Part shown: piece after piece, positions 10,764 to 23,067 of the stretch | Position numbering within the stretch: the first letter of the stretch is position 1 | How the letters are laid out: each line of letters starts with the position of its first letter | NCBI GenBank assembly: GCA_046497275.1 | Contig: JAWOFX010000078.1 | Location: forward strand, 37,696 to 69,695 | Reading direction: 5' to 3' | Source of the DNA: Promethearchaeia archaeon | GTDB taxonomy: Archaea; Asgardarchaeota; Lokiarchaeia; Sigyniarchaeales; SOKP01 | Length of the DNA: 32,000 nt | Position numbers and translations under genes: made by a program | The notes under the pieces: model-generated | What the model was told of the DNA's origin: nothing | What the model saw: the letters and a program-made list of their open reading frames with translations, nothing else | The model's database searches: none

Positions 10764-10899
10764 CAGTCGTTTTGAGAAATTTTTCTATGATTTAAAAGCT
10801 TTTTATAATTCTTTATAAGAAAAAATATTGATTGAAATATAAAAAAATTAAAAAAATAGGAAAGGAATAATTTTATAATTGCTAGAATCGTTCTTAACT

Positions 10900-12522
10900 C
10901 TATATAACTCTAATATTTCTGTTAATCGTGTTAACATTCCCAAAGTTATCTGATATTTTAAATTTGACTTCATAAATACCAGGTTTTTCATAGGCATGTT
11001 TAGTTAGGATAATATTGCTAGTTTCTCCATCACCAAAATCCCATTCAAAATCTAACGAAATACTTTCTGGAGCAGTAAAAACGGTAGGATGGAACAAAGC
11101 GGAATAACCAACGGGAACAGGATAAGGTAGTACATCAAAGAAACCAGAAGGAGGGTCTATTACTTCTTTTTTTGTCATAAATTGCTGCATGTTATCTAAT
11201 TTTCCATCTGCTTCTATAATAGAATCTTTTGGGGTTTTTAATATATGCTCGATAATCTCTATATGTGCTTTAGTAGCTCTTTCGAGTCGTTCAGGAGGTA
11301 CTCTTTCGGTTGTATCTTCTTTTGTATGATAAAAGATTGATTTTCCAATGATCATTATTGAAGGAACGTCTGCAAAAACAAATGGTCCCATATCACTAAC
11401 GGGCAAAGTTTTCGCGGATACATACGCAGAAGGGAACAATTGATATTTAAGAACTGAATCAATAACTATAGATGTCAACACAGAATTATCTGTAATAAAT
11501 AAACCTCGTTTTTCATCCTTGCCTGTCTCGACAACTGCTCCATCAGCTTGATTATAGTAGCCATTAGATGCTAAACCATCTAACATAATGAAGGTAACAA
11601 TTTTATCAAGCATATCTTGATGCATTTTTGTAAATTTATTTACACCAATTAAGCCCGTTTCGTGTCCCGTCCACCCAACAAATTTGATTGTCTTATCTCT
11701 TTTTTCTAGGGGAAGATCTGCAAAAAATCTTGCCATCGCTATTAATCCTGCATTGGCTGCAGCATTATCCATAGCTCCTGTGAAGGTGGAATCGGTATGA
11801 GTCCCAATTAATATTATATCTTCTGATTTACCTGGGATGGTGCCAATAATCGTATTAGTCTTAGCTTTCTCTGTTTTTACCTTTTGAATAAGATTGACTT
11901 TTAGATTACTTCTATTATTTGAACATAAATATTTTAAATATTCTCCATCAATATTGTTAACAGAAAGCGCCGGTAATCTTCGCTTCCAACCCAACATAGA
12001 CATATAGAAAATATATGTGATTAAATCAAGCGGGGAACCATTAATAAATACAACCGCTAATGCTCCGTTTTCTTTTGCTAAAGCTAAAGAATTAAAAATT
12101 CTGTCTGTATAAGAGGGAAAAAAATTAAGTATCATTTTGCCTTCTATTAAAGCTATTTTATTTTGGACTGATATTTTTTCAAAATCTACGGAAGTTCCGT
12201 TTCCAACATACACAAAATCTGCAGTGATTCCTTCAGAATCTGTAGATCCAGTTGTCCAGACGGGAAATGAGGTTATAATTTGATCATCGAGAATAGGGAG
12301 CTCGTCATTTTTTAAAATTTTGAGACCATACTCTTCAGCCCACCATCTATTGAATTTATATTCTTCCAGTTCCACATCTGAGATTCCTGCTCTTTTTAAC
12401 TCCTCAAAAATATATTCCTCTGTTTTGACAGCCGATTCAGTTCCCGCTCTACGATATCCAAAATCACATATAGTTTTCATATGCTGATAAATTTCTTGCC
12501 CATTAATATCCTTTAAATCCAT
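10900..12522 (-). CDS. M28 family peptidase with PA domain and C-terminal PKD domain
   Basis: GYRRAGT; PA insert (VYVGNG, KIALI); GTHTDS, GAMDNAA, GHETGLIG, SDMGPF, YHTKED; PKD motif FEWDFGDG...HAYEKPGIYEV. Confidence 0.88.
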   Translation of the reverse strand: MDLKDINGQEIYQHMKTICDFGYRRAGTESAVKTEEYIFEELKRAGISDVELEEYKFNRWWAEEYGLKILKNDELPILDDQIITSFPVWTTGSTDSEGITADFVYVGNGTSVDFEKISVQNKIALIEGKMILNFFPSYTDRIFNSLALAKENGALAVVFINGSPLDLITYIFYMSMLGWKRRLPALSVNNIDGEYLKYLCSNNRSNLKVNLIQKVKTEKAKTNTIIGTIPGKSEDIILIGTHTDSTFTGAMDNAAANAGLIAMARFFADLPLEKRDKTIKFVGWTGHETGLIGVNKFTKMHQDMLDKIVTFIMLDGLASNGYYNQADGAVVETGKDEKRGLFITDNSVLTSIVIDSVLKYQLFPSAYVSAKTLPVSDMGPFVFADVPSIMIIGKSIFYHTKEDTTERVPPERLERATKAHIEIIEHILKTPKDSIIEADGKLDNMQQFMTKKEVIDPPSGFFDVLPYPVPVGYSALFHPTVFTAPESISLDFEWDFGDGETSNIILTKHAYEKPGIYEVKFKISDNFGNVNTINRNIRVI

Positions 12523-12651: not shown

Positions 12652-13326
12652 TTACTTATCTCTTGGAAAATAAGGACACCTTTCCATATGACAATCATTA
12701 TTAAGTTCCCAAACATCACATCTCCCGATTACTTTTGAACGAGTTAAATGATAATCCATATTATTTAAGATTTTTAAAGCTTGATCTATAGCCGTATATG
12801 CACTTAATCTGCAACATCTTGGCCCACCTAATTTTCCAATTCTTTTATTTGCTTCTTGCGCAGCTTCGAATGCAGCTGAACGAGCTTTGTCATGAAATGG
12901 ATTTGCTCGTTTAACCAGACTCACAGCAATCCCAAGACCAGATCCCCCACCACAAGTACCACAGAAACCACATCCCCCCGCCGGTATTTTAAGGCCTCTA
13001 CTAAATGCTTCTTTAATATCTTTGTCTGTAAAATCATATCCATTATTTCTCAAAGCTGTTATAATGACTGCTGGAACTATTCCATGGTGCCATGGACCGT
13101 GGAATGGTAAGGTTTCTGAAGCAGTCCACTCCTCTCGTAATTTATCGATTGTATTCTCAAAAATAAGAAATGCATCTTTATCTTTTTGCTGTAATATTAT
13201 TGGGAGCACTTTTGGCATGAAATTTTGATAATCCTCCATTGTTAGGTTATCAAAATCCAAAACAGTTTCCATAAATTCATCATAATAAGGTATTTCTTTT
13301 GCTTGTTCAAATTGTTTTGTATCCAT
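12652..13326 (-). CDS. DUF5714-like Cys/His-rich metal-binding protein
   Basis: HGPWHHGIVPAV, PAGGCGFCGTCGGG, GGPRCCR, C..WELNNDCHMERCPYF. Confidence 0.8.
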   Translation of the reverse strand: MDTKQFEQAKEIPYYDEFMETVLDFDNLTMEDYQNFMPKVLPIILQQKDKDAFLIFENTIDKLREEWTASETLPFHGPWHHGIVPAVIITALRNNGYDFTDKDIKEAFSRGLKIPAGGCGFCGTCGGGSGLGIAVSLVKRANPFHDKARSAAFEAAQEANKRIGKLGGPRCCRLSAYTAIDQALKILNNMDYHLTRSKVIGRCDVWELNNDCHMERCPYFPRDK

Positions 13327-13437: not shown

Positions 13438-13800
13438 ATGGATGACGATCGCTTCAAAAATTATATTAATGAATTGGAACCTGAAACTACTTGTGAAGCC
13501 TTTTTAAAACAGAATAGAGAGATTTTGAAAAAATTTAAATCAAATAATAAATTTAAAAGAGAATTTAAAGTATATAACGCATTGGGCCATAAATTGCGAT
13601 ATATGATTTTTAAAATTCTTCAGAATAAGCCTATGTGTGTTTGTGCATTAGCACAAGTTTTTGAAAAATCCGATAGTAGCATTGCTTATCATTTGAATAT
13701 ATTACAAGATGCTGCACTCATAATTGGTAGAAAAAAAGGATATTTCACAATTTACTATTCTAAAGAAAAATTATTAACTGAAATAAATGAAATTCTTTAG
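13438..13800 (+). CDS. arsR: ArsR/SmtB family regulator
   Basis: NALGHKLRYMI..L..KPMCVCALA......SSIAYHLNILQDAALI...KKGYFTIY; CVC metalloid site in alpha3. Confidence 0.9.
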   Translation: MDDDRFKNYINELEPETTCEAFLKQNREILKKFKSNNKFKREFKVYNALGHKLRYMIFKILQNKPMCVCALAQVFEKSDSSIAYHLNILQDAALIIGRKKGYFTIYYSKEKLLTEINEIL

Positions 13801-13814
13801 AAATTTAAATTATG

Positions 13815-14246
13815 TTAAAACAAGATTTTCCTTTCTTTTAACCATGATTTGATTTTCTCTTCAATTTCATCTCGAGTTTTTCGAAATTTCTCCAATTTTT
13901 CTGCTTTTGACCCTTCAAATGCCGCAGGATCCTCAATATCCCAAAATAATCTTGTGCTTACTCCAGGAAGGGTAGGACATAATTTTTCTGCTTTTTGACA
14001 TAATGTTATTACTATTCCAAAATGTTTTTCTCCTAAATATTGACTTAAATCTTTGGAATAATGGTTTTTCATATCATAACCTTTTTCTTCCATAACTTCT
14101 TTAGCGAGAGAATGGATTTCTCTGGGTTCAAATCCGGCACTAAACACATTGAAATGATCGGCAGCATATTTATTTAGTATGGCTTCTGCCATCTGGCTTC
14201 TGCAAGAATTTCCGGTACATAATACAACCACATTTTTTGATTTGAT
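13815..14246 (-). CDS. arsC: Arsenate reductase, LMW-PTP/thioredoxin-coupled type
   Basis: CTGNSCRSQMAE, SAG, VITLC...CP, WDIEDPA. The frame is open to ATC at 14246, which has a GAGGT RBS 8 nt upstream; the track starts it at GTG 14231. Confidence 0.93.
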   Translation of the reverse strand: MKSKNVVVLCTGNSCRSQMAEAILNKYAADHFNVFSAGFEPREIHSLAKEVMEEKGYDMKNHYSKDLSQYLGEKHFGIVITLCQKAEKLCPTLPGVSTRLFWDIEDPAAFEGSKAEKLEKFRKTRDEIEEKIKSWLKERKILF

Positions 14247-14263: not shown

Positions 14264-14563
14264 TTATGTATTTGAATTTGAACTTTGATTAATTAAACCT
14301 TTTTCTTCTAAAATTTTAGATAATTGCTTTTTTAATACATATACAGAAGAGATCTTTTTCTCTTCATCAATAATAACACATTTTTGAAATAAATTCATCT
14401 CCGCAGCTTTTTCGGAATGTAATGACATTGTATCATGTTCGATAAATTTAATATATGGAGTAAGCACCTCAAAAACACGGTTCATGAAATTTTCCCATTC
14501 ACACGTACAAACCTGTAATGGAACATAAATATCCACTTTAAGTTTTTCTTTTAGTTTTGACAT
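14264..14563 (-). CDS. Small CxC protein, possibly thioredoxin-like fold or metallochaperone
   Basis: ATG at 14563 with GAGGGA upstream; MSKLKEKLKVDIYVPLQVCTC...; lies between hgcB-like and arsC on the same strand. Confidence 0.6.
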   Translation of the reverse strand: MSKLKEKLKVDIYVPLQVCTCEWENFMNRVFEVLTPYIKFIEHDTMSLHSEKAAEMNLFQKCVIIDEEKKISSVYVLKKQLSKILEEKGLINQSSNSNT

Positions 14564-14589
14564 AAAATCCCTCTTTTGATTAAATTCTA

Positions 14590-14922
14590 TTAACAACAAC
14601 AAGATGTATCATTAGATTTTCCTTTCGAACGTTTTCTAGCATCCCATAGGCATCCACATCCTTGCTGTTCTTGCATTATTATTGCTTGAGTGGGACAATT
14701 TCTTTGACATGCACTACATTCTGTGCATTTTTCTGGGCTCCTAATTGTATATGTACCATCATTTTCTTTTTGTGGAAGACCAAATGGGCAAATTTCTTCG
14801 CATAAACCACATGCAATACATTTTGATGGATCAATAATAATCCTTAAATTTAAAGCCTTCAGAAAACCTTCAATATTACTGCTAGAGTCACAACATTTAT
14901 TATTTTCTTTTAGTTCTGTCAT
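14590..14922 (-). CDS. hgcB: HgcB-like 2[4Fe-4S] ferredoxin with Cys-rich tail
   Basis: CIACGLCEEICP and CTECSACQRNCP, then GCGC and a terminal CCC; begins 31 nt after the hgcA-like stop. Confidence 0.8.
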   Translation of the reverse strand: MTELKENNKCCDSSSNIEGFLKALNLRIIIDPSKCIACGLCEEICPFGLPQKENDGTYTIRSPEKCTECSACQRNCPTQAIIMQEQQGCGCLWDARKRSKGKSNDTSCCC

Positions 14923-14953: not shown

Positions 14954-16615
14954 TTATATTATTATAACACTCAAAATTGTAGAAATCACACCAACACTAA
15001 GTAGAAGGGAATTTAATTTTTTAAATAATGGATATTCATCACGAATTTCTCTAGGATTAGTAGACATTGTATATCCGCTAAAAGACATTGTAGTGAAGAA
15101 CCCAATCCATAGAAAAAAGAATAAATTCAAAAAAATATACAATAAAGACAATCTAAGGAACCATGTGATTATTCCAAGGAATATTGTATTAATAATTCCG
15201 AAAAATAAACTTTTCACAATAAAATTACGTGTAAATTGAGATAGTGGATAAAGTAATGTTAATATTAGGTTTGGAAAGAGTATCCAAATTAGGAGATCTC
15301 CAACCATCCAAGTTTTATTGATTACATTAATAATATCTAGTGCCAAAAATGATATGAAAAGAGTTAATAGGGGAAAAAAGAAAACTTTTCTCATTAGAAA
15401 TGTAGTATGGGTTATTCCTGCACTTATTCTATGTTGTAAAGTAAATCTTGCTCTTTTCATTTTTTGAGGTTTTTTATTTGGTCGCTTTGTTAGATATTCC
15501 TTTAAATATTTTGACCAAACAGGTCCATATTTTACCTTAAATGGGAATTTTTCAGACATCTCTGGAAGATTAGGTTTTGAAACACCTCCAGCAGAGAGTT
15601 GTGGTAAGATGATAGTTCTATTCTCAGTGAATTGTCGCAAAACAGTTGCTTCAACAGCTTCAACTAATTGCGTATTACCAAAATCATTACCTCTTGCAGC
15701 ACACCATACATTTATCCCATTAGAATCAAGGGATAAAACCCAAGCATCTATATCTTCCAAGTCCCTCATAACTTTTATAAAAGTATAGACATAATTAGCC
15801 GTGGCTATAATAGGAGATTTTGCATCTGGGTCCCCCGATTTATATAATCCTGGTTCAACTGAGATATTATCAACTTGTCCAGTTAATAAACATCTCCAGA
15901 TTTTTAATTGAGAAGAAAAACCCTTTATTTTAGGTTTTTCAGGGCTATAATAACCGGGTTTAGAATTTGGTCTTGAATTTTTTACTAACTCTATTACTCT
16001 AATTGATCCGTGAATCCATTCCTCGTTATCGACAATTTTAAAGCCAATAGGTTCTAAATAATCATAAAAATGTTCTAAAGGTTTAGACTTATCTATATTA
16101 AGCCTTTTCAATTTTTTGCCATAAAACCATCTTTTAACCTTAAAAGGAATTTTCCATATTCCAGAAGGGACAAATTCTGCGGCAATTATTAATCGACCCC
16201 CAGTTTTTAAAGCTTTCCAAGAATTACGAAGGAAGATTTGTTGCTCTAAAGGTCTTAATTCAGATAACATAAAAGTGCTAATTACAAGATCTTGAGATTT
16301 ATCAGGAACATTTAGACTCTTTATTGTACCTATTTGATATATTAATTCTATGTTATCTTTTTCGGGGATGTTTTTCATAGCATAACTAATCATCTGATAA
16401 TTTTTATCAATCGCTATTACTTTACAACCTTTTAAAGCCATTTTTGATGCGAGGGATCCCGTACCACATCCTACTTCCAGAATTGACTGATCTGGTGCAG
16501 TTTTATCTAAAATCCAATTATGAACTTCTAGGTTAATTCCTTGAGTTAGAGATTTAAATTTTGAATCATAACTCTCAGGTTGTTGCTCCAATTTTAACAT
16601 GTAGGTAACAGCCAT
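14954..16615 (-). CDS. hgcA: Class I SAM methyltransferase fused to an HgcA-like corrinoid protein with C-terminal membrane domain
   Basis: aa 1-212 MTase (ILEVGCGTG, IAID, DLVISTFMLSEL, LKTGGRLII). aa about 240-390 CdhD/HgcA corrinoid domain (VEPGLY..GDPD..SP...TANY, GINVWCAARG, IILPQLSAGGV, YGPV). aa 410-553 TM helices with SFSGYTMST...EIRDE. GAGGT RBS upstream. Confidence 0.85.
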   Translation of the reverse strand: MAVTYMLKLEQQPESYDSKFKSLTQGINLEVHNWILDKTAPDQSILEVGCGTGSLASKMALKGCKVIAIDKNYQMISYAMKNIPEKDNIELIYQIGTIKSLNVPDKSQDLVISTFMLSELRPLEQQIFLRNSWKALKTGGRLIIAAEFVPSGIWKIPFKVKRWFYGKKLKRLNIDKSKPLEHFYDYLEPIGFKIVDNEEWIHGSIRVIELVKNSRPNSKPGYYSPEKPKIKGFSSQLKIWRCLLTGQVDNISVEPGLYKSGDPDAKSPIIATANYVYTFIKVMRDLEDIDAWVLSLDSNGINVWCAARGNDFGNTQLVEAVEATVLRQFTENRTIILPQLSAGGVSKPNLPEMSEKFPFKVKYGPVWSKYLKEYLTKRPNKKPQKMKRARFTLQHRISAGITHTTFLMRKVFFFPLLTLFISFLALDIINVINKTWMVGDLLIWILFPNLILTLLYPLSQFTRNFIVKSLFFGIINTIFLGIITWFLRLSLLYIFLNLFFFLWIGFFTTMSFSGYTMSTNPREIRDEYPLFKKLNSLLLSVGVISTILSVIII

Positions 16616-16722
16616 TTTTCATACCTCTTTAAGAATATAAACTAAATCTTTTTTACTTTCCAGAATCCTTTTTTTCCAAGAAATCGTCCTAAATATATAA
16701 TTGAAAGTATAATGGGAATTTC

Positions 16723-16740
16723 TCAAAATAATACTTTTGA
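16723..16740. promoter_or_regulatory. Palindrome TCAAAA-N6-TTTTGA, candidate ArsR operator
   Basis: Perfect 6-bp arms in the divergent hgcA-like/arsR intergenic region; the AT-rich background lowers significance. Confidence 0.3.
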
Positions 16741-16974
16741 TTTGCAGATTCTAAATTTACTTTTAGTTGTCTAAGCTTCATAATAAGTGAATTTTATTTT
16801 AGATTTAAACCTATCGATTTGGACTCATTAACCCCAATCTGAAATATTTTATAATTAATTTTAATTACTATATATGAATAGAGAAAACAAGGATGGTGAA
16901 ACAATATTAATAAAGAGAGAAAAATTGAACTTATGGATACATTAAAAAGTTGTGTAGATTTGAAGGGTGTTAAT

Positions 16975-17310
16975 ATGTCCGAATATTTCAATGAACTAAA
17001 AGAATTCGGAAATTCCCTTACTTACAAAAAGGAATTTCGAGAGATATTAGAGTTTTGTAATACTCTAGGTAATGAAGAGAGATTAAAAATCATTGAGAGC
17101 CTTAATAAACAAGATCATTGCGTATGTGAGTTAGAAGTAATTTTAGGTAAATCCCAATCAACAGTTTCCCATCATTTACGAGAATTGGAAAAGATTGACC
17201 TCATTAGAGGATGGAAAAAAGGGAAATTCACTCATTATGTTATAATACAAGAAAAATTGGATTATTATTTGAATTTAATTTGTCAAAAATATAGAAAAAC
17301 CGATTCTTAA
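16975..17310 (+). CDS. arsR: ArsR/SmtB family regulator (second copy)
   Basis: LGNEERLKII, DHCVCELE..LGKSQSTVSHHLRELEKIDLIRGWKKGKFTHY. ATG 16975 has GGGTG upstream; the track extends it to 16933. Confidence 0.92.
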   Translation: MSEYFNELKEFGNSLTYKKEFREILEFCNTLGNEERLKIIESLNKQDHCVCELEVILGKSQSTVSHHLRELEKIDLIRGWKKGKFTHYVIIQEKLDYYLNLICQKYRKTDS

Positions 17311-17377: not shown

Positions 17378-17752
17378 TTAAAAATTTAATAAATTTAAAA
17401 TTACTAAGCTAACAGAAGTGAAAAGAATTATTCCAAACATCAGAACAAATACCCACTGTTTTTTTTGTCCGTAATATCCTGCTGAATTGATGACTGCATA
17501 AATTACTAATCCCATAGCGAGAATGAAAAATGTAGATGCCCAAGAGAGTCTAATAAGAAGAAGAATTCCACTGAGTAGAGAAAGAATCCCCATAGACATT
17601 TCAGCAGTTATATGAAATCTTATTTCTATACTTTGTGTTTTTAATTCTGGTACCTGATTTGTTAGAAGCAACATTGCCCAAAGCCCTATAATTCCTATCC
17701 CAATGATTATTGCATATATTCCACTAATTATTTGAAGAACGATTTTTCTCAC
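17378..17752 (-). CDS. Four-TM membrane protein, unknown function
   Basis: 124 aa, four hydrophobic helices, FHITAE and INSAGYYGQ motifs, GTG start. Confidence 0.7.
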   Translation of the reverse strand: MRKIVLQIISGIYAIIIGIGIIGLWAMLLLTNQVPELKTQSIEIRFHITAEMSMGILSLLSGILLLIRLSWASTFFILAMGLVIYAVINSAGYYGQKKQWVFVLMFGIILFTSVSLVILNLLNF

Positions 17753-17943
17753 ATTTTTACGTTTTATGACTAGGAATAATAAAGTCTAGTTTAATAAAAA
17801 AATTTCTTATATATATTTAAACATTAATTCAAGGGTTATATTCAATAGAGATATGAATTTAATTATAATTTTCATTCAAGATTCAGAAAATATAAAGAAA
17901 AAACAAGATAAATAAAATAAGTTATTTCTCTTTTATTTAGTGC

Positions 17944-18042
17944 TTAAGTTAAACCATATTTAATGAGAATTATTATTATAACAACAACAACTAAAATTAA
18001 CACTCCAATAAATATCCAAAAGGGATCCAATTTTTTTTTCAT
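17944..18042 (-). CDS. 32-aa single-TM microprotein
   Basis: Hand-translated: MKKKLDPFWIFIGVLILVVVVIIIILIKYGLT*. Basic N-terminus, one TM helix, fills an otherwise empty gap. Confidence 0.55.
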   Translation of the reverse strand: MKKKLDPFWIFIGVLILVVVVIIIILIKYGLT

Positions 18043-18315
18043 CTCTAATTGATTTCTATGTTATCAATATTAAAATTGAATATTTATACTTTTTTAATAA
18101 TATCTATCTGGTCAAAAAAGGTTATTTAATATTATATTCAAAAATTTCAATATAATTTTCACTATCCTTGGTGATTTTTTTAAATTCTTTTCTGGTAATT
18201 AATATTTTAGTGGTCCCTTTCTTTTTATAATCTAGGCTCAGAATACATTTATTATGATGGATTTCCATTAAATTAATGTGGAAACCAATATTAATAATAC
18301 TCAGGAGATAGTAAT

Positions 18316-19581
18316 ATGAGCGATTTTAATCAAAATAATAACTTTTCAACATATTTGAAAGTGATAAATCCGTCAGAAATTCACATTAATAAAGAAGATA
18401 TATTTTATCGTGAAAAATATAAAGAAATTATAAATTACTTAAAATTGATTTTAACAGAGTCAAAAGACTTAGAAATTTTTAATTATTTCAATCCAAAAGG
18501 TTTATTATTTATTCAAACTAGTCCTGGGATCGACTTAATAGACTATCTAAAGTTGATTTGCTCAAATTTTTACATTTATTATGTACAGTTAAGAGAATCT
18601 ATTATCAATGAGGATCCAACTGGATTTTTCAATAATTTTCCAACAATATTGAATCAAATCGATGAAATCTTAAAATCGAAAATTAAAAGTCAAACGAAAA
18701 CTGTGAAAGATCAACAAGATAAAAATTTAGAATATAATACTGAAAAATTAATAGTGATTAATCAAAATGAGAGACTTACACAGAATTTAGGAGATCAAAA
18801 TTTATTGAATAAATTTCTCTCCTATTATCAAGAAGAGGAAAATCTGAAAGTTTTGCTCGAAAATAAAATTATCATAATATGGATTAATTATGATTATAAA
18901 GGAGTATTAACCCATTCAGAGCAATTATATAACATTTTTGATTATGTAATTAGGGTTCCTATACTAAATAAAACCGAACGACAGCAAGTTTTTAGAGAGT
19001 TTATGGAAAATAATCCTAAAATCTCATTTGATATCAATCAATTAGTTGAACTTACTGAAAATTGGGAAGTAAAAGAAATTGATAATTTGCTTAGATTAGC
19101 AATTTTAAAACATCATTTTAATTCTGAACTAAATACAACCAGTAACGAGATCACAGATAGCATAATAGATTTGATTGAAACTGGAGAATTTATCCCCTAT
19201 TTTAAGAAGAAAGAACTGAAATATAAAGAAGATAAGGAAGAAATCTCCTATAAGGAAGTAGGGGGAAAAACAAAAATACCAAACCAAATTATCGAGACAA
19301 AAATAAATGATGGCACTAAAGATATTATTAATCAAATTGAATCTGAAAAATATTCTGATTTTATGTTAAACCAATTATATGAAAATGCCGCTTCAGAAAA
19401 TTATAATGAATTAATATTGATTATAGATAAATTAGATAAAAAGGAACCTCTCGAAGAGAATGATAGAAAAATATTGTCGAAATTTCCATTCATTCTAAGT
19501 TCTTCTCCTTCTAAAGCACAAATACTTTTAGAAAAAGCAAAAAAAAGGATTGATATGATTACCAAATCTTTTGGAAAATGA
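18316..19581 (+). CDS. Degenerate (probably inactive) AAA+ ATPase-like protein
   Basis: EDIFYREKYKEIINYL...PKGLLFIQTSPGIDL mirrors the pre-Walker/Walker A region of CDC48/PAN (PKGVLLYGPPGTGKT) without GKT. IFDYVIRVPILNKTERQQVF...DINQLVELTENWEVKEIDNLLRLA mirrors the AAA lid. Confidence 0.7.
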   Translation: MSDFNQNNNFSTYLKVINPSEIHINKEDIFYREKYKEIINYLKLILTESKDLEIFNYFNPKGLLFIQTSPGIDLIDYLKLICSNFYIYYVQLRESIINEDPTGFFNNFPTILNQIDEILKSKIKSQTKTVKDQQDKNLEYNTEKLIVINQNERLTQNLGDQNLLNKFLSYYQEEENLKVLLENKIIIIWINYDYKGVLTHSEQLYNIFDYVIRVPILNKTERQQVFREFMENNPKISFDINQLVELTENWEVKEIDNLLRLAILKHHFNSELNTTSNEITDSIIDLIETGEFIPYFKKKELKYKEDKEEISYKEVGGKTKIPNQIIETKINDGTKDIINQIESEKYSDFMLNQLYENAASENYNELILIIDKLDKKEPLEENDRKILSKFPFILSSSPSKAQILLEKAKKRIDMITKSFGK

Positions 19582-19599
19582 GTTGAGTGTTGAAATTAA

Positions 19600-22500
19600 A
19601 TGAGTGATGATAAAAAAGATATTATTGGAAAAAAAGGATCAGATCCATTTTCGGAAAGACAGGTGCATATTCATAAAGTTATATTGGAGAATTTTCTTTC
19701 ATTTAGGAAGGATGAGGTGGAGTTTAATGATAATAAGTTTATCATCATCGTGGGACCCAATTGGAGTGGTAAAAGTTCAATCTATCAATCAATTAAGTTC
19801 GTTCTTGGAAGCAATGAACGGGATGAGAGATATCCGAAATGGTCTGATTTTATTAGATTTGGGCAAGACCATGCCATGGTTGAAATACATATTAAAGATA
19901 ATTCAGATTTATTAAAAATTAGAAGAACCGTCCTTAAAGGACACTCACCTTTTTTTGAACTACAAAGAGGAGGAGAAAAAGATTTTAAGAAGGTAAGAGC
20001 AAGTGAGGTTCAAGATTTAGTATCAGAATTAAACTATAATCCTGATAATCAGTTTGCATTTGTTAGTCAAGGGAAAATCGATTCTATTAAAGATTTGAAA
20101 CCAACGGAATTATGTACATTTCTTGAAGAGGGCATTGGATTAATTGGCATGCGACAAGAAATTTTACAGAAAAAGAATGAAATCGAATCTTTAAAGTATG
20201 AATTGCAATCAATAAATACCAAAAAGAATTCCTTAAATATCAATTTAGATCTCCTTAGACCAAAATTAGAGAGATTAAAAGAAAAAAACAAATTATTAAA
20301 GAAAAAGAGGAAGTTTGAAGATGAGCTTTTATGGGCGAATCGTCAAAAACTTCTCTTAGAAATAGTAGAATTAACAGATGAAGTCAAAAATTTGAATTCT
20401 TTGATTAAAAAAATAGGAAAACAAAAACAAGAAAACCTAGATAAAGCAGACTTTTTATCAAGAGAAATTGAAGAACTAGAAGATAAAATAAACGAGTTCT
20501 CTAAAAATCTTGGTCAAGAAGAATATAAGAAGCAAGATTTAGTTGGAAAAATTAAGAAATGGCAAAATGCAAAAGTTGATATGAAAAAAGAACTTGATGA
20601 CCTTTCTACCAAGATCAAAGCTCAGAATAAAAAGTTAGAAAATCTGAAAAGCCAGAAAGACAGTATTGAGGCAAATTTAAACACAATTAAGAGAGATTTA
20701 AATAAAATTGAGAAAAATATTGAAGATCTGATTCAAGAACAAGCAGAATTATCAACAAAAATTGAAGAAAATAAAGCATTTTTAGAAAAATATAACAAAT
20801 TATCATCAGACAAAGAGGAAAAGCAAAATCAAATTCAAGAAAATAAGACTATAATAAACGATATAGTAAATCAAATTAATCAATTATTTCAAAGTTTTAA
20901 AGATATAAAGCATAAACTGGAAAAAAATAAATGGTTTTTAGAAAACCCTACTAAGAATTTATTAAAAGAGTTGGATGTAGAGTTAGAAAAAGTTTCCTCT
21001 GAATTATTTGATATTGAGGAAGATTTAAAGAGATTAGAGCATGAAAAATCTCGCAAGATGGATGATTTTCGCCGTTTAAGAGGATCTTTAGATGAGAGAA
21101 GAATAGTACTTCCTACAAATATTAATATATTAAAAGATGAAATTCGAAAAAGAGATTTACAGGTAAAGGGTCCAATTATCGAATATATCAAATATGATGA
21201 TAAACTGAGCTATGCTATAGAATCCGTTTTAGGGGAAAAATTACTTTATAGTTTTGTTGCATCTGATTGGGATACTTTAGATTTATTAAAAAGACTCAAA
21301 GAGAAATATAATGCATATTGCAATATTTATTTAGCTAAATCTGAAAGTATAAAAGCATATAATAAATTTGAAGCAGAAGGTGTTATCGGTTATTTAGTAG
21401 AACTCATAAAAACAAATGACATTGAAATTAAGAAAGTTATATATTCGAAGATAAAAAATTGTTTAGTTGTAAAAGATTATAGAAACGGGAAACAATTATA
21501 TAATCGCTATTCATTTAAAGGGAAATGTGTAACATTAAAAGGAGAACAAATTATTTCATACAAATACGTATATGAAACACCCTACCGCAAACAATTAAAA
21601 GGATTATTAAGTGCGGGTACGCAAAAAGAACAAGCAGATAGATTAGAAAATGATATAAAAAACCTAAATGATCAAATTTCAGATTTAAAGGTAAATGCGT
21701 CTAAATTAGATGAAATTCAACAAGAGATCTATAACAAAAAGAGTGCCTTTAACGATTTGCTTTATAATCTTAATCAAAAACAGAGAATCACCTCAAAGAA
21801 GAATCAATTATATGAACAGAAGGCTAAATTAGAGGAGTTAAATTCCAGATTCTCAGAAGAAATCGAAAATATAGATATAGAGTTAAAAGAATTAGAAAAA
21901 CAAAAATCCTCAGATTTTTTTAAATATAACTCGCGATTAAAAGAGATCCCCAATTTATTAAAGAATCTAAATAAGGAGAAAAAAACTTGGAACCTAAAAT
22001 TAATTGAGAGCAGTGAGATATTATCTGCTGTAAATGAAAAAATCAATAAAGTTTCAAATAAAGTTAATAATTTGAATTCGGAGTATAAGACTAAACAAGA
22101 AAATTTTCAAAAAGCAGATAGAGAAGCTTTTGAGATATATCGAGAGTTGGACAAAGTTGAGAATTCTATCAATGAATTAAATCAAGAAATTCAAGAATTT
22201 AAGTCTGAGAGGAAGCAAAAACTCTCTGATAAAGCAATTTTAGATAAAAAAAAGATAGAAATTGAATTGAAAATTGAACAGGAAACCATTAATTTAAATC
22301 AAGCAAAACAAGAATTAAACTCCAAAAATGAGGATTTAAAACGTATTGATACAGAAATAGGCGATAAGATAAAACAAAAGGAATTAAAACCAAGGGTTAT
22401 TCAAGAAATAAAAGAGGATATCCTTGAAATTGATAAAAAATTATTGCAATTTTTTGATGTTGATGATTCTATCTTAGTTGAGCGGGACCAAATTTTATCG

Positions 22501-23067
22501 TCCTTAAAAAAAATTGTTAAAAATCAAAAGGATTTGGAGGACGATGTCCAAGCAGCAATCGATACAGAAGATAAATTAGAAAGCACATATTATAAGAAAT
22601 TTGAATCGGTTCTTGATGAATTGGAGGATCGTATCAATAAGAAGTTTGAGGATTCTAATATTAATGTTTATTGTGCTTTAGAGTTAATAGGTGATTTTGA
22701 GGAATTAGGAGTTGATATCAAAGCTGCGACTTCCAATAAGCCATTAATTTCTTGTACAGCTCTTAGTGGAGGCCAAGTATCAATGGTCTCGATAGCCCTC
22801 ATCCTCTCATTACAGGAAATGGAGCCGTCACCTCTATGTATGTTTGATGAAGCAGCTATGTTTTTAGATGATAAAAATGCTGAGATTACTTATGAATTAA
22901 TTAAATCAACTTTGGAACAGAATCCTATTCAAATGTTAATGTTTCTTCCAAAATCTTCTAATGCTTTATATAGATTAGCTGAAAAATTAATTGGAGTAGC
23001 AAGAGTAGGTAAAGATGAGGTATCTACCATATTCAATCCAAAAATAAAAAATCAAAAAAGTAAATGA
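19600..23067 (+). CDS. smc: SMC protein, SMC5/6-like
   Basis: Walker A GPNWSGKS, Q-loop FVSQGKI, two long coiled coils around a hinge (VKGPIIEYI...AIESVLG), signature LSGGQ, Walker B MFDE, His-less switch MFLPK. Confidence 0.92.
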   Translation: MSDDKKDIIGKKGSDPFSERQVHIHKVILENFLSFRKDEVEFNDNKFIIIVGPNWSGKSSIYQSIKFVLGSNERDERYPKWSDFIRFGQDHAMVEIHIKDNSDLLKIRRTVLKGHSPFFELQRGGEKDFKKVRASEVQDLVSELNYNPDNQFAFVSQGKIDSIKDLKPTELCTFLEEGIGLIGMRQEILQKKNEIESLKYELQSINTKKNSLNINLDLLRPKLERLKEKNKLLKKKRKFEDELLWANRQKLLLEIVELTDEVKNLNSLIKKIGKQKQENLDKADFLSREIEELEDKINEFSKNLGQEEYKKQDLVGKIKKWQNAKVDMKKELDDLSTKIKAQNKKLENLKSQKDSIEANLNTIKRDLNKIEKNIEDLIQEQAELSTKIEENKAFLEKYNKLSSDKEEKQNQIQENKTIINDIVNQINQLFQSFKDIKHKLEKNKWFLENPTKNLLKELDVELEKVSSELFDIEEDLKRLEHEKSRKMDDFRRLRGSLDERRIVLPTNINILKDEIRKRDLQVKGPIIEYIKYDDKLSYAIESVLGEKLLYSFVASDWDTLDLLKRLKEKYNAYCNIYLAKSESIKAYNKFEAEGVIGYLVELIKTNDIEIKKVIYSKIKNCLVVKDYRNGKQLYNRYSFKGKCVTLKGEQIISYKYVYETPYRKQLKGLLSAGTQKEQADRLENDIKNLNDQISDLKVNASKLDEIQQEIYNKKSAFNDLLYNLNQKQRITSKKNQLYEQKAKLEELNSRFSEEIENIDIELKELEKQKSSDFFKYNSRLKEIPNLLKNLNKEKKTWNLKLIESSEILSAVNEKINKVSNKVNNLNSEYKTKQENFQKADREAFEIYRELDKVENSINELNQEIQEFKSERKQKLSDKAILDKKKIEIELKIEQETINLNQAKQELNSKNEDLKRIDTEIGDKIKQKELKPRVIQEIKEDILEIDKKLLQFFDVDDSILVERDQILSSLKKIVKNQKDLEDDVQAAIDTEDKLESTYYKKFESVLDELEDRINKKFEDSNINVYCALELIGDFEELGVDIKAATSNKPLISCTALSGGQVSMVSIALILSLQEMEPSPLCMFDEAAMFLDDKNAEITYELIKSTLEQNPIQMLMFLPKSSNALYRLAEKLIGVARVGKDEVSTIFNPKIKNQKSK

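Follow-up and report, generated by a model that had tools for sequence, protein, structure and literature searches.

Why would an Asgard archaeon join an S-adenosylmethionine (SAM) methyltransferase (MTase) to a protein resembling HgcA, and why would such a gene stand among arsenic genes? The question is raised by a stretch of 32,000 nucleotides (nt), hereafter the window, from a Promethearchaeia archaeon (Sigyniarchaeales; SOKP01; assembly GCA_046497275.1, contig JAWOFX010000078.1, positions 37,696-69,695 of the forward strand), in which the gene at 14954-16615 on the minus strand encodes a CpaM-like MTase followed by an HgcA-like protein (hereafter the fusion). Two long-standing questions are touched by it: the native function of the HgcA family, together with the reason why microbes methylate mercury, and the enzyme behind methylcobalamin-dependent arsenic methylation in anaerobic archaea. 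The host group adds to the interest, Asgard archaea being the closest archaeal relatives of eukaryotes. The lead offered here is an MTase fused to an HgcA-type corrinoid protein amid As(III)-type ArsR regulators, ACR3 and ArsC in many Asgard genomes. We conclude that, with little room for doubt, the window gene represents the CpaM/HgcAB-like system in its Asgard two-part version, this system being the sister lineage of the mercury methylase HgcAB. Judging from sequence, we give a probability of about 0.4 to a reading of its function in which a ferredoxin would supply electrons and a methyl group would pass from SAM to Co(I) and on to As(III) or another metalloid.

An intact fusion of three domains

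The open reading frame (ORF) begins with ATG and, in the translation of the window, runs over 553 amino acids (aa) with zero internal stops. Its parts are the following.

14954-16615, minus strand: fusion gene, 553 aa, with a CpaM-like SAM MTase, an HgcA-like corrinoid-binding domain together with a transmembrane (TM) domain of five helices
15980-16615, minus strand: class I SAM MTase domain of the CpaM type, aa 1-212, assigned from NF043040, Pfam Methyltransf_11/25 and invariant residues
15446-15901, minus strand: HgcA-type corrinoid-binding domain, about aa 239-390, assigned from the Pfam CdhD and NF040863 matches
15689-15712, minus strand: cap-helix motif NVWCAARG, aa 302-309, with the cobalt-ligating Cys305 retained and RG in place of the canonical GK
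14957-15445, minus strand: TM domain of five helices, aa 391-553, assigned from the AlphaFold2 helices and from the HgcA profile, matched to position 322 of 325

A preliminary description of this DNA had proposed a single ORF of 553 aa with a complete MTase domain (aa 1-212), a corrinoid domain and an HgcA-like membrane tail in an Asgard host, and Pfam, NCBIfam and AlphaFold2 bore this out. Methyltransf_11 and Methyltransf_25 matched aa 45-145 with 57 bits, above their gathering scores, and CdhD matched aa 238-342 with 54.4 bits against a threshold of 24.8. The CpaM model NF043040 covered aa 4-209 (profile 3-213 of 216, 140.1 bits, cut-off of 180 not reached) and the HgcA model NF040863 covered aa 239-549 (profile 16-322 of 325, 169.9 bits, cut-off of 275 not reached), the two domains being separated by a linker of about 25 residues. 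The HgcAB_like model NF043039 was matched over positions 13-267 of 350 only, with 168.6 bits, its cut-off of 285 not being reached. The E-values of the three NCBIfam matches lay between 1e-41 and 1e-50, although all three were below cut-off.

Conservation was assessed over 26 diverse fusions. In the MTase domain, M6, L9, E10, P13, G49, G51, G53, D70, D109, E119, G140 and E147 were invariant, the SAM motifs (G49/G51/G53 and D70) being thus included, and Y16 was nearly so. The N-terminal signature Y.LK.LE..P..YD, which the preliminary description had given, was recovered in this way (M6, L9, E10 and P13, with Y16), and the N-terminus of the window protein, MAVTYMLKLEQQPESYD, agrees with the family consensus. 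C50, within motif I, was the sole conserved cysteine of aa 1-212. In the cap helix, N302, V303, W304, C305 and A307 were invariant; these five, together with G256, Y258, N274, G300, P338 and G364, are invariant in the fusion and in canonical HgcA alike, as are R396 and G514 in the TM domain.

The AlphaFold2 model of the fusion, built from a 95-sequence alignment, had a mean pLDDT of 93.8 and a pTM of 0.89. It shows a Rossmann-type alpha/beta domain at the N-terminus, then the alpha/beta corrinoid domain, then five long C-terminal helices (393-428, 436-461, 465-488, 491-515 and 521-552). The top Foldseek match was a published integrative model of HgcAB (9a0b_A) and all others were small-molecule class I SAM MTases; a sequence search of the PDB found no solved HgcA structure. 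When the MTase (aa 1-218) and the corrinoid domain (aa 236-400) were modeled as a complex of separate chains, the score was 0.01 against a mark of 0.32, a value that is informative neither way.

The same architecture was present in more than 120 clusters at 90% identity, the named ones all coming from metagenome-assembled genomes of Promethearchaeota/Lokiarchaeota, Heimdall-, Hermod- and Hodarchaeota. Among representatives clustered at 50% identity, full-length fusions were recovered with as little as 28% identity, some of them bacterial, for example from Abyssubacteria. Among 400 Asgard genomes, 166 carry the fusion as an uninterrupted match from residue 1 to about 550, free of internal stops and at identities as low as about 30%, and within the family of the window it occurs in 103 of 134 genomes. 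This recurrence rules out an assembly or frameshift artefact and indicates that the join is genuine; the suspicion that two genes had been merged was thus dispelled, the fusion being intact in relatives, and the survey of its frequency that the preliminary description had proposed showed it to be common, not rare.

Membership of the CpaM/HgcAB-like system

The partners of this system occur in several arrangements. In loci L059 and L060 they are split, with CpaM lying 20-25 nt upstream of an HgcAB-like gene, and all scores are above cut-off (CpaM, 244.7 and 204.5 bits; HgcAB-like, 419 and 346 bits). Four proteins (P0144, P0148, P0150 and P0161) are three-part fusions of MTase, corrinoid protein and ferredoxin that pass both the CpaM and the HgcAB-like cut-offs. 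The window has the two-part form with a separate ferredoxin, and more distant fusions (P0130, P0137 and P0142) pass the CpaM cut-off with 211-231 bits. Because split, two-part and three-part forms all exist, the Rosetta-stone logic by which the fusion had been taken to link the two proteins was sound. It was no discovery, since the association had already been named by NCBI: the CpaM model NF043040 is classed there as a hypothetical equivalog, and certain Hodarchaeales fusions carry the annotation "corrinoid protein-associated methyltransferase CpaM".

The family and its MTase partnership are therefore already catalogued and, as far as literature searches show, uncharacterised: these found no characterisation of CpaM or of an MTase-HgcA fusion. 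The combination of which we found no description in the literature is that of an MTase fused to a full HgcA-type protein, with a separate ferredoxin, in an ars operon. With the CpaM and HgcAB-like proteins (NF043040/NF043039) the window protein shares the MTase family and its N-terminal M..LE..P..YD signature, a non-canonical corrinoid domain with the cysteine kept and the cap-helix lysine absent, and the obligatory pairing of MTase, corrinoid protein and 2x[4Fe-4S] ferredoxin. It differs from them in that the partner joined to the corrinoid protein is the MTase and not the ferredoxin, in its TM domain of the full five-helix HgcA type, in the location of the genes within an ars operon in this Asgard lineage, and in its three profile scores, all below cut-off.

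Position outside canonical HgcA

The canonical HgcA/HgcB pair is the mercury methylase reportedly described by Parks in 2013, and the fusion retains much of its layout: a Cys-ligated corrinoid domain, five TM helices in the model, and a separate gene for a Cys-tailed ferredoxin directly downstream. An ArsR-type regulator is also often nearby in both. In contrast, the canonical proteins have neither an MTase domain nor an MTase neighbor, carry GK in the cap helix and form a well-supported clade of their own. From 144 rows covering the corrinoid and TM regions we computed a maximum likelihood tree, unrooted because only about 130 columns could be aligned with CdhD as an outgroup. Canonical HgcA formed a clade of 95 rows (SH-aLRT 100) without a single MTase fusion, and the window protein was placed outside it, in a separate Asgard "AARG" clade (SH-aLRT 95). 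The statement in the preliminary description that canonical HgcA has no MTase domain is thus confirmed by all 95 rows, and also by two canonical control loci, in which HgcB lies downstream and no MTase is nearby.

A "fused HgcAB" lineage is said to have been recognised by Podar in 2015. Lin et al. (2023; PMC10083202) placed Asgard sequences in a non-canonical "fused-hgcAB" subtree, after removing the first 327 alignment columns, where the MTase domain would fall, and our separate Asgard clade agrees with their placement.

The cap helix and the profile scores point in the same direction. The canonical motif N(V/I)WCA(A/G)GK is incomplete in the window protein, with Cys305 present and GK absent; GK was found in none of 41 MTase-fused proteins as compared with 90 of 110 proteins without MTase. 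On NF040863 the canonical controls P0164 and P0169 reached 441 and 430 bits, against 169.9 for the window protein. The window genome, which is 98.9% complete, has only two genes of the CdhD family, a real CdhD and the fusion, and thus no canonical HgcA. The earlier HgcA-like designation therefore holds for the corrinoid and TM domains, while score, cap helix and clade all separate the protein from canonical HgcA.

Since the protein is not a canonical HgcA, a role with mercury, and mercury as the acceptor, is unlikely. It could be argued that the fusion is a cryptic mercury methylase that methylates Hg(II) as HgcAB does, with a built-in SAM loader, and that is missed by motif screens: Cys305, the NVWCA core, the TM domain of five helices, including R396 and G514, and the HgcB-like partner with its cysteine tail are all retained, and Asgard genomes have been listed among putative methylators (PMC12484752). 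We consider this highly improbable given the position outside the canonical clade, the score of 170 against 275 bits, the lack of GK in all 41 MTase-fused forms and an operon context of arsenic, not mercury.

The ferredoxin and the proposed methyl transfer

The next gene encodes a plausible electron donor, a low-potential ferredoxin.

14590-14922, minus strand: HgcB-like 2x[4Fe-4S] ferredoxin of 110 aa, its gene starting 31 nt downstream of the fusion, assigned from NF040864 and Pfam Fer4

Its best NCBIfam match was HgcB (NF040864), with 52 bits against a cut-off of 99, and it contains two CxxCxxCxxxCP motifs. A ferredoxin gene follows the fusion in 34 of the 39 sampled loci in which the fusion was identified, so that the "one-polypeptide relay" of the preliminary description, which leaves this obligatory separate protein out of account, is overstated. 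In all 33 Asgard ferredoxins adjacent to a fusion, the Fe-S motifs are followed by GCGC(L/I)W, and the C-terminus has a cysteine cluster, which takes the form CC in most of them and CxC in seven loci. The sole bacterial ferredoxin partner (locus L006) has neither feature.

The reaction could proceed as follows. The ferredoxin would reduce the Cys305-ligated corrinoid to Co(I). We infer, purely from the arrangement of the domains, that the N-terminal MTase domain would bind SAM and would probably methylate Co(I) in cis, yielding CH3-Co(III). At the membrane domain, the methyl group would then be handed to a soft metalloid that the Cys-rich tail of the ferredoxin (GCGC and the terminal CCC) would hold. 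As(III) or a methylarsenical seems the best candidate for the acceptor in this lineage, tentative as the choice must be, because the gene lies among ars genes with As(III)-type regulators. The joint conservation of the SAM motifs, Cys305, the cap helix and the ferredoxin suggests that the chemistry is intact.

Corrinoid-dependent methylation of arsenic has a reported precedent in methanogens, in which MtaA acts with methylcobalamin (Thomas, 2011, as cited in PMC13262295). The two systems would share a corrinoid-methyl route, which in methanogens leads to As, Sb, Se, Te and Bi; the MtaA route is there an unregulated side reaction of an enzyme of methanogenesis, whereas the window system would be dedicated and apparently arsenic-regulated. 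SAM has been shown to methylate Co(I) of purified HgcAB and to be the methyl donor during turnover (PMC11588087).

The methylation of protein-bound cob(I)alamin by SAM in cis, as proposed here, is found with the MetH activation domain, with class B radical-SAM enzymes and with TsrM-type enzymes. Their SAM modules are not Rossmann-fold class I MTases, however, nor are these proteins known to be membrane-anchored or to use a Cys-ligated corrinoid. In MetH, the cis-fused SAM-binding domain and a low-potential electron donor serve reactivation, not turnover. The main alternative is that the fusion works likewise, with MTase and ferredoxin only rescuing Co(II) by reductive methylation and with a different real donor or acceptor, such as a methylated substrate undergoing demethylation or a thiol served by an MT2 enzyme. 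The combination of MTase, corrinoid protein and ferredoxin fits such a MetH-like reactivation equally well, and in two unrelated bacterial contigs a URO-D gene resembling MtaA/CmuA stands beside the CpaM::HgcA(B)-like gene (L006:7869-8963 and L007:7791-8969, both on the minus strand). These MtaA-like neighbors are convergent, however, score 33-62 bits against cut-offs of 235-244 and do not occur in the Asgard loci, where no second methyl-donor enzyme is conserved beside the fusion genes; the use of SAM for turnover by canonical HgcAB (PMC11588087) also argues against a role restricted to repair, which we regard as improbable. The product of the URO-D neighbor in L006 and L007 might itself accept the methyl group from the corrinoid, as an enzyme of the MT2 type.

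The arsenic neighborhood

The proposal of arsenic as the acceptor comes from the genes around the fusion.

13815-14231, minus strand: ArsC, a thioredoxin-type arsenate reductase with the LMW-PTPase fold (Pfam LMWPc, 82 bits; TIGR02691, 124.8 bits, cut-off of 174 not reached)
16933-17310, plus strand: ArsR/SmtB regulator, divergent from the fusion, with a CVC motif (HCVCELEVIL; HTH_5, 55 bits; NF033788, 68.8 bits)
13438-13800, plus strand: second ArsR-family regulator, with a CVC motif (PMCVCALAQ)
16616-16932, no strand assigned: divergent arsR/fusion promoter region, with an imperfect inverted repeat whose arms are 16699-16713 and 16728-16742

The arms of the inverted repeat are 15 nt long and 80% complementary, with a spacing of 14 nt, and we propose the repeat as a candidate ArsR operator. 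The ars set of the window consists of the two CVC ArsR genes and the ArsC-like gene, with no pump, ACR3 being encoded on another contig. Within the order to which the window belongs, the fusion usually lies in an ars operon, in which ArsM or ArsC is sometimes present. The usual gene order in relatives is a divergent ArsR, an optional DUF166 gene, ACR3, the fusion, the ferredoxin, small ORFs and sometimes ArsC. Divergent ArsR genes are common, and the regulators at this position carry CVC or CxCxxC. Of the 18 loci of the family, 9 have ACR3 directly upstream of the fusion or within three genes of it, as do 2 of the 6 loci that come from other families of the order; the ACR3-fusion-ferredoxin order on one strand is kept despite differing outer flanks, across families at 47-60% identity. 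ArsC lies downstream of the fusion in the window and in two relatives, and a true ArsM (347 bits against 263) stands between ACR3 and the fusion in L003 and L032.

We also considered the MTase domain as an ArsM-type enzyme methylating arsenic directly. ArsM has the same class I SAM MTase fold and the same location in ars operons, to the point of adjoining the fusion upstream in L003 and L032, but the window domain lacks conserved As(III)-binding cysteines, C50 alone being conserved, and it scored 37.9 bits against the ArsM cut-off of 263 (NF008823). This candidate was thus ruled out, and any methyl transfer to arsenic would therefore have to go via the corrinoid. No ArsM above cut-off was found in the 98.9% complete window genome. 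Many Asgard ArsM matches (in G119-G122, G146, G117, G170 and others) contain one in-frame TAA or TAG, which may reflect read-through past the gene end.

Several observations weigh against arsenic as the acceptor, or against the reading as a whole. With 140 bits, the MTase domain falls short of the CpaM cut-off of 180. The cluster of the window is without ACR3, which the genome encodes on a separate contig. In ten loci of other Asgard classes ACR3 is missing, and ArsR is found in only two of them, while the bacterial members of the fusion family occur in unrelated gene contexts; the arsenic context is thus specific to a lineage and cannot serve to define the whole family. Of the 103 genomes of the family that bear the fusion, 34 contain ArsM, as do 14 of the 31 that lack it, and in some ArsM is co-operonic with the fusion; since about one third of the fusion genomes have ArsM, the fusion is not a simple substitute for it. 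As evidence of complementarity between the two genes this trend is weak and confounded by phylogeny, and we set it aside. Finally, ArsR-like regulators also accompany canonical hgcAB, as in our control locus L062, and can sense S-adenosylhomocysteine (SAH); in ND132 an ArsR responsive to arsenic and SAH controls hgcAB (bioRxiv 10.1101/2022.10.17.512643).

These regulators leave room for a substrate other than a metal. The fusion could methylate a lipid, a thiol or a metabolite, or could perform reductive chemistry such as dehalogenation, its ars neighbors reflecting shared regulation or inherited synteny. The very different gene contexts outside the order of the window would fit this explanation, as would the dechlorination of CCl4 reported for heterologous HgcAB (bioRxiv 10.64898/2026.04.26.720869) and the response of the hgcAB regulators to SAH as well as to arsenic (bioRxiv 10.1101/2022.10.17.512643). 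The locus is moreover syntenic with an SMC operon across genera, so that part of the linkage to ars genes may be inherited. On the other hand, the ACR3-fusion-ferredoxin order survives changes of the flanks across families at 47-60% identity, the regulators have cysteine motifs of the As(III) type, and the Cys-rich tail of the ferredoxin suits soft metals or metalloids. We therefore hold a non-metal substrate to be rather unlikely, and retain As(III) or another metalloid as the preferred acceptor.

Implications for HgcA and arsenic methylation

If arsenic is indeed the acceptor, the fusion would be the first dedicated, arsenic-regulated, corrinoid-dependent metalloid MTase (SAM to CH3-Co(III) to As), and the CpaM-coupled forms might be ancestral to the HgcA family, a scenario that must be called doubtful at present. 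Should it be true, it would explain the use of SAM by modern HgcAB, and would suggest that mercury methylation is a by-product of an ancient function with arsenic or another metalloid. If the arsenic role is confirmed, methylarsenicals could also arise in anoxic sediments by a second enzymatic route, and the Asgard fusion genes should then not be scored as mercury methylators in surveys.

Other genes of the locus

The third gene of the operon encodes a small protein.

14264-14602, minus strand: small conserved CxC protein, with no Pfam or NCBIfam match and the motif VDIYVPLxxCxCEW

Homologues with this motif stand at the same position in 13 sampled locus records from 10 distinct genomes (including L003:8023-8412 and L001:8025-8294), and some copies have a Cys-rich N-terminal extension (SCC...SCCG). 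The protein could be a metalloid chaperone. A fourth conserved gene of 80-120 aa is found in the operons of relatives (L003:8450-8803, L001:8425-8673 and L026:11208-11573); most copies end in QLQPDVGC and none has a family match.

The DUF166 gene lies between ArsR and ACR3 in many relatives (for example L001:4155-4898 and L003:3227-3973) and shows a weak match to DfsP, a DUF166 (seleno)protein. Within a set of four loci from the same genus (L035-L038), L035 has an NADPH-dependent FMN reductase (FMN_red, 101 bits) together with a MarR regulator in place of ArsR and ACR3 upstream of the fusion, at 10828-11415 and 11801-12265, both on the minus strand, and ORFs of similar size occur at those positions in L036-L038. 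The SMC operon mentioned above comprises a 421-aa protein and SMC (17378-23067 in the window), and its synteny with the ars/fusion locus extends over several genera of the family (L001, L003 and L026-L029).

Also encoded in the window, at 12652-13326 on the minus strand, is a DUF5714 protein (145.7 bits) that has a GGCGFCGTCGGGSG motif and a partial match to the metal-binding double selenoprotein MbdU (72 against 600 bits). It is only in the window genome that this gene adjoins the ars cluster.

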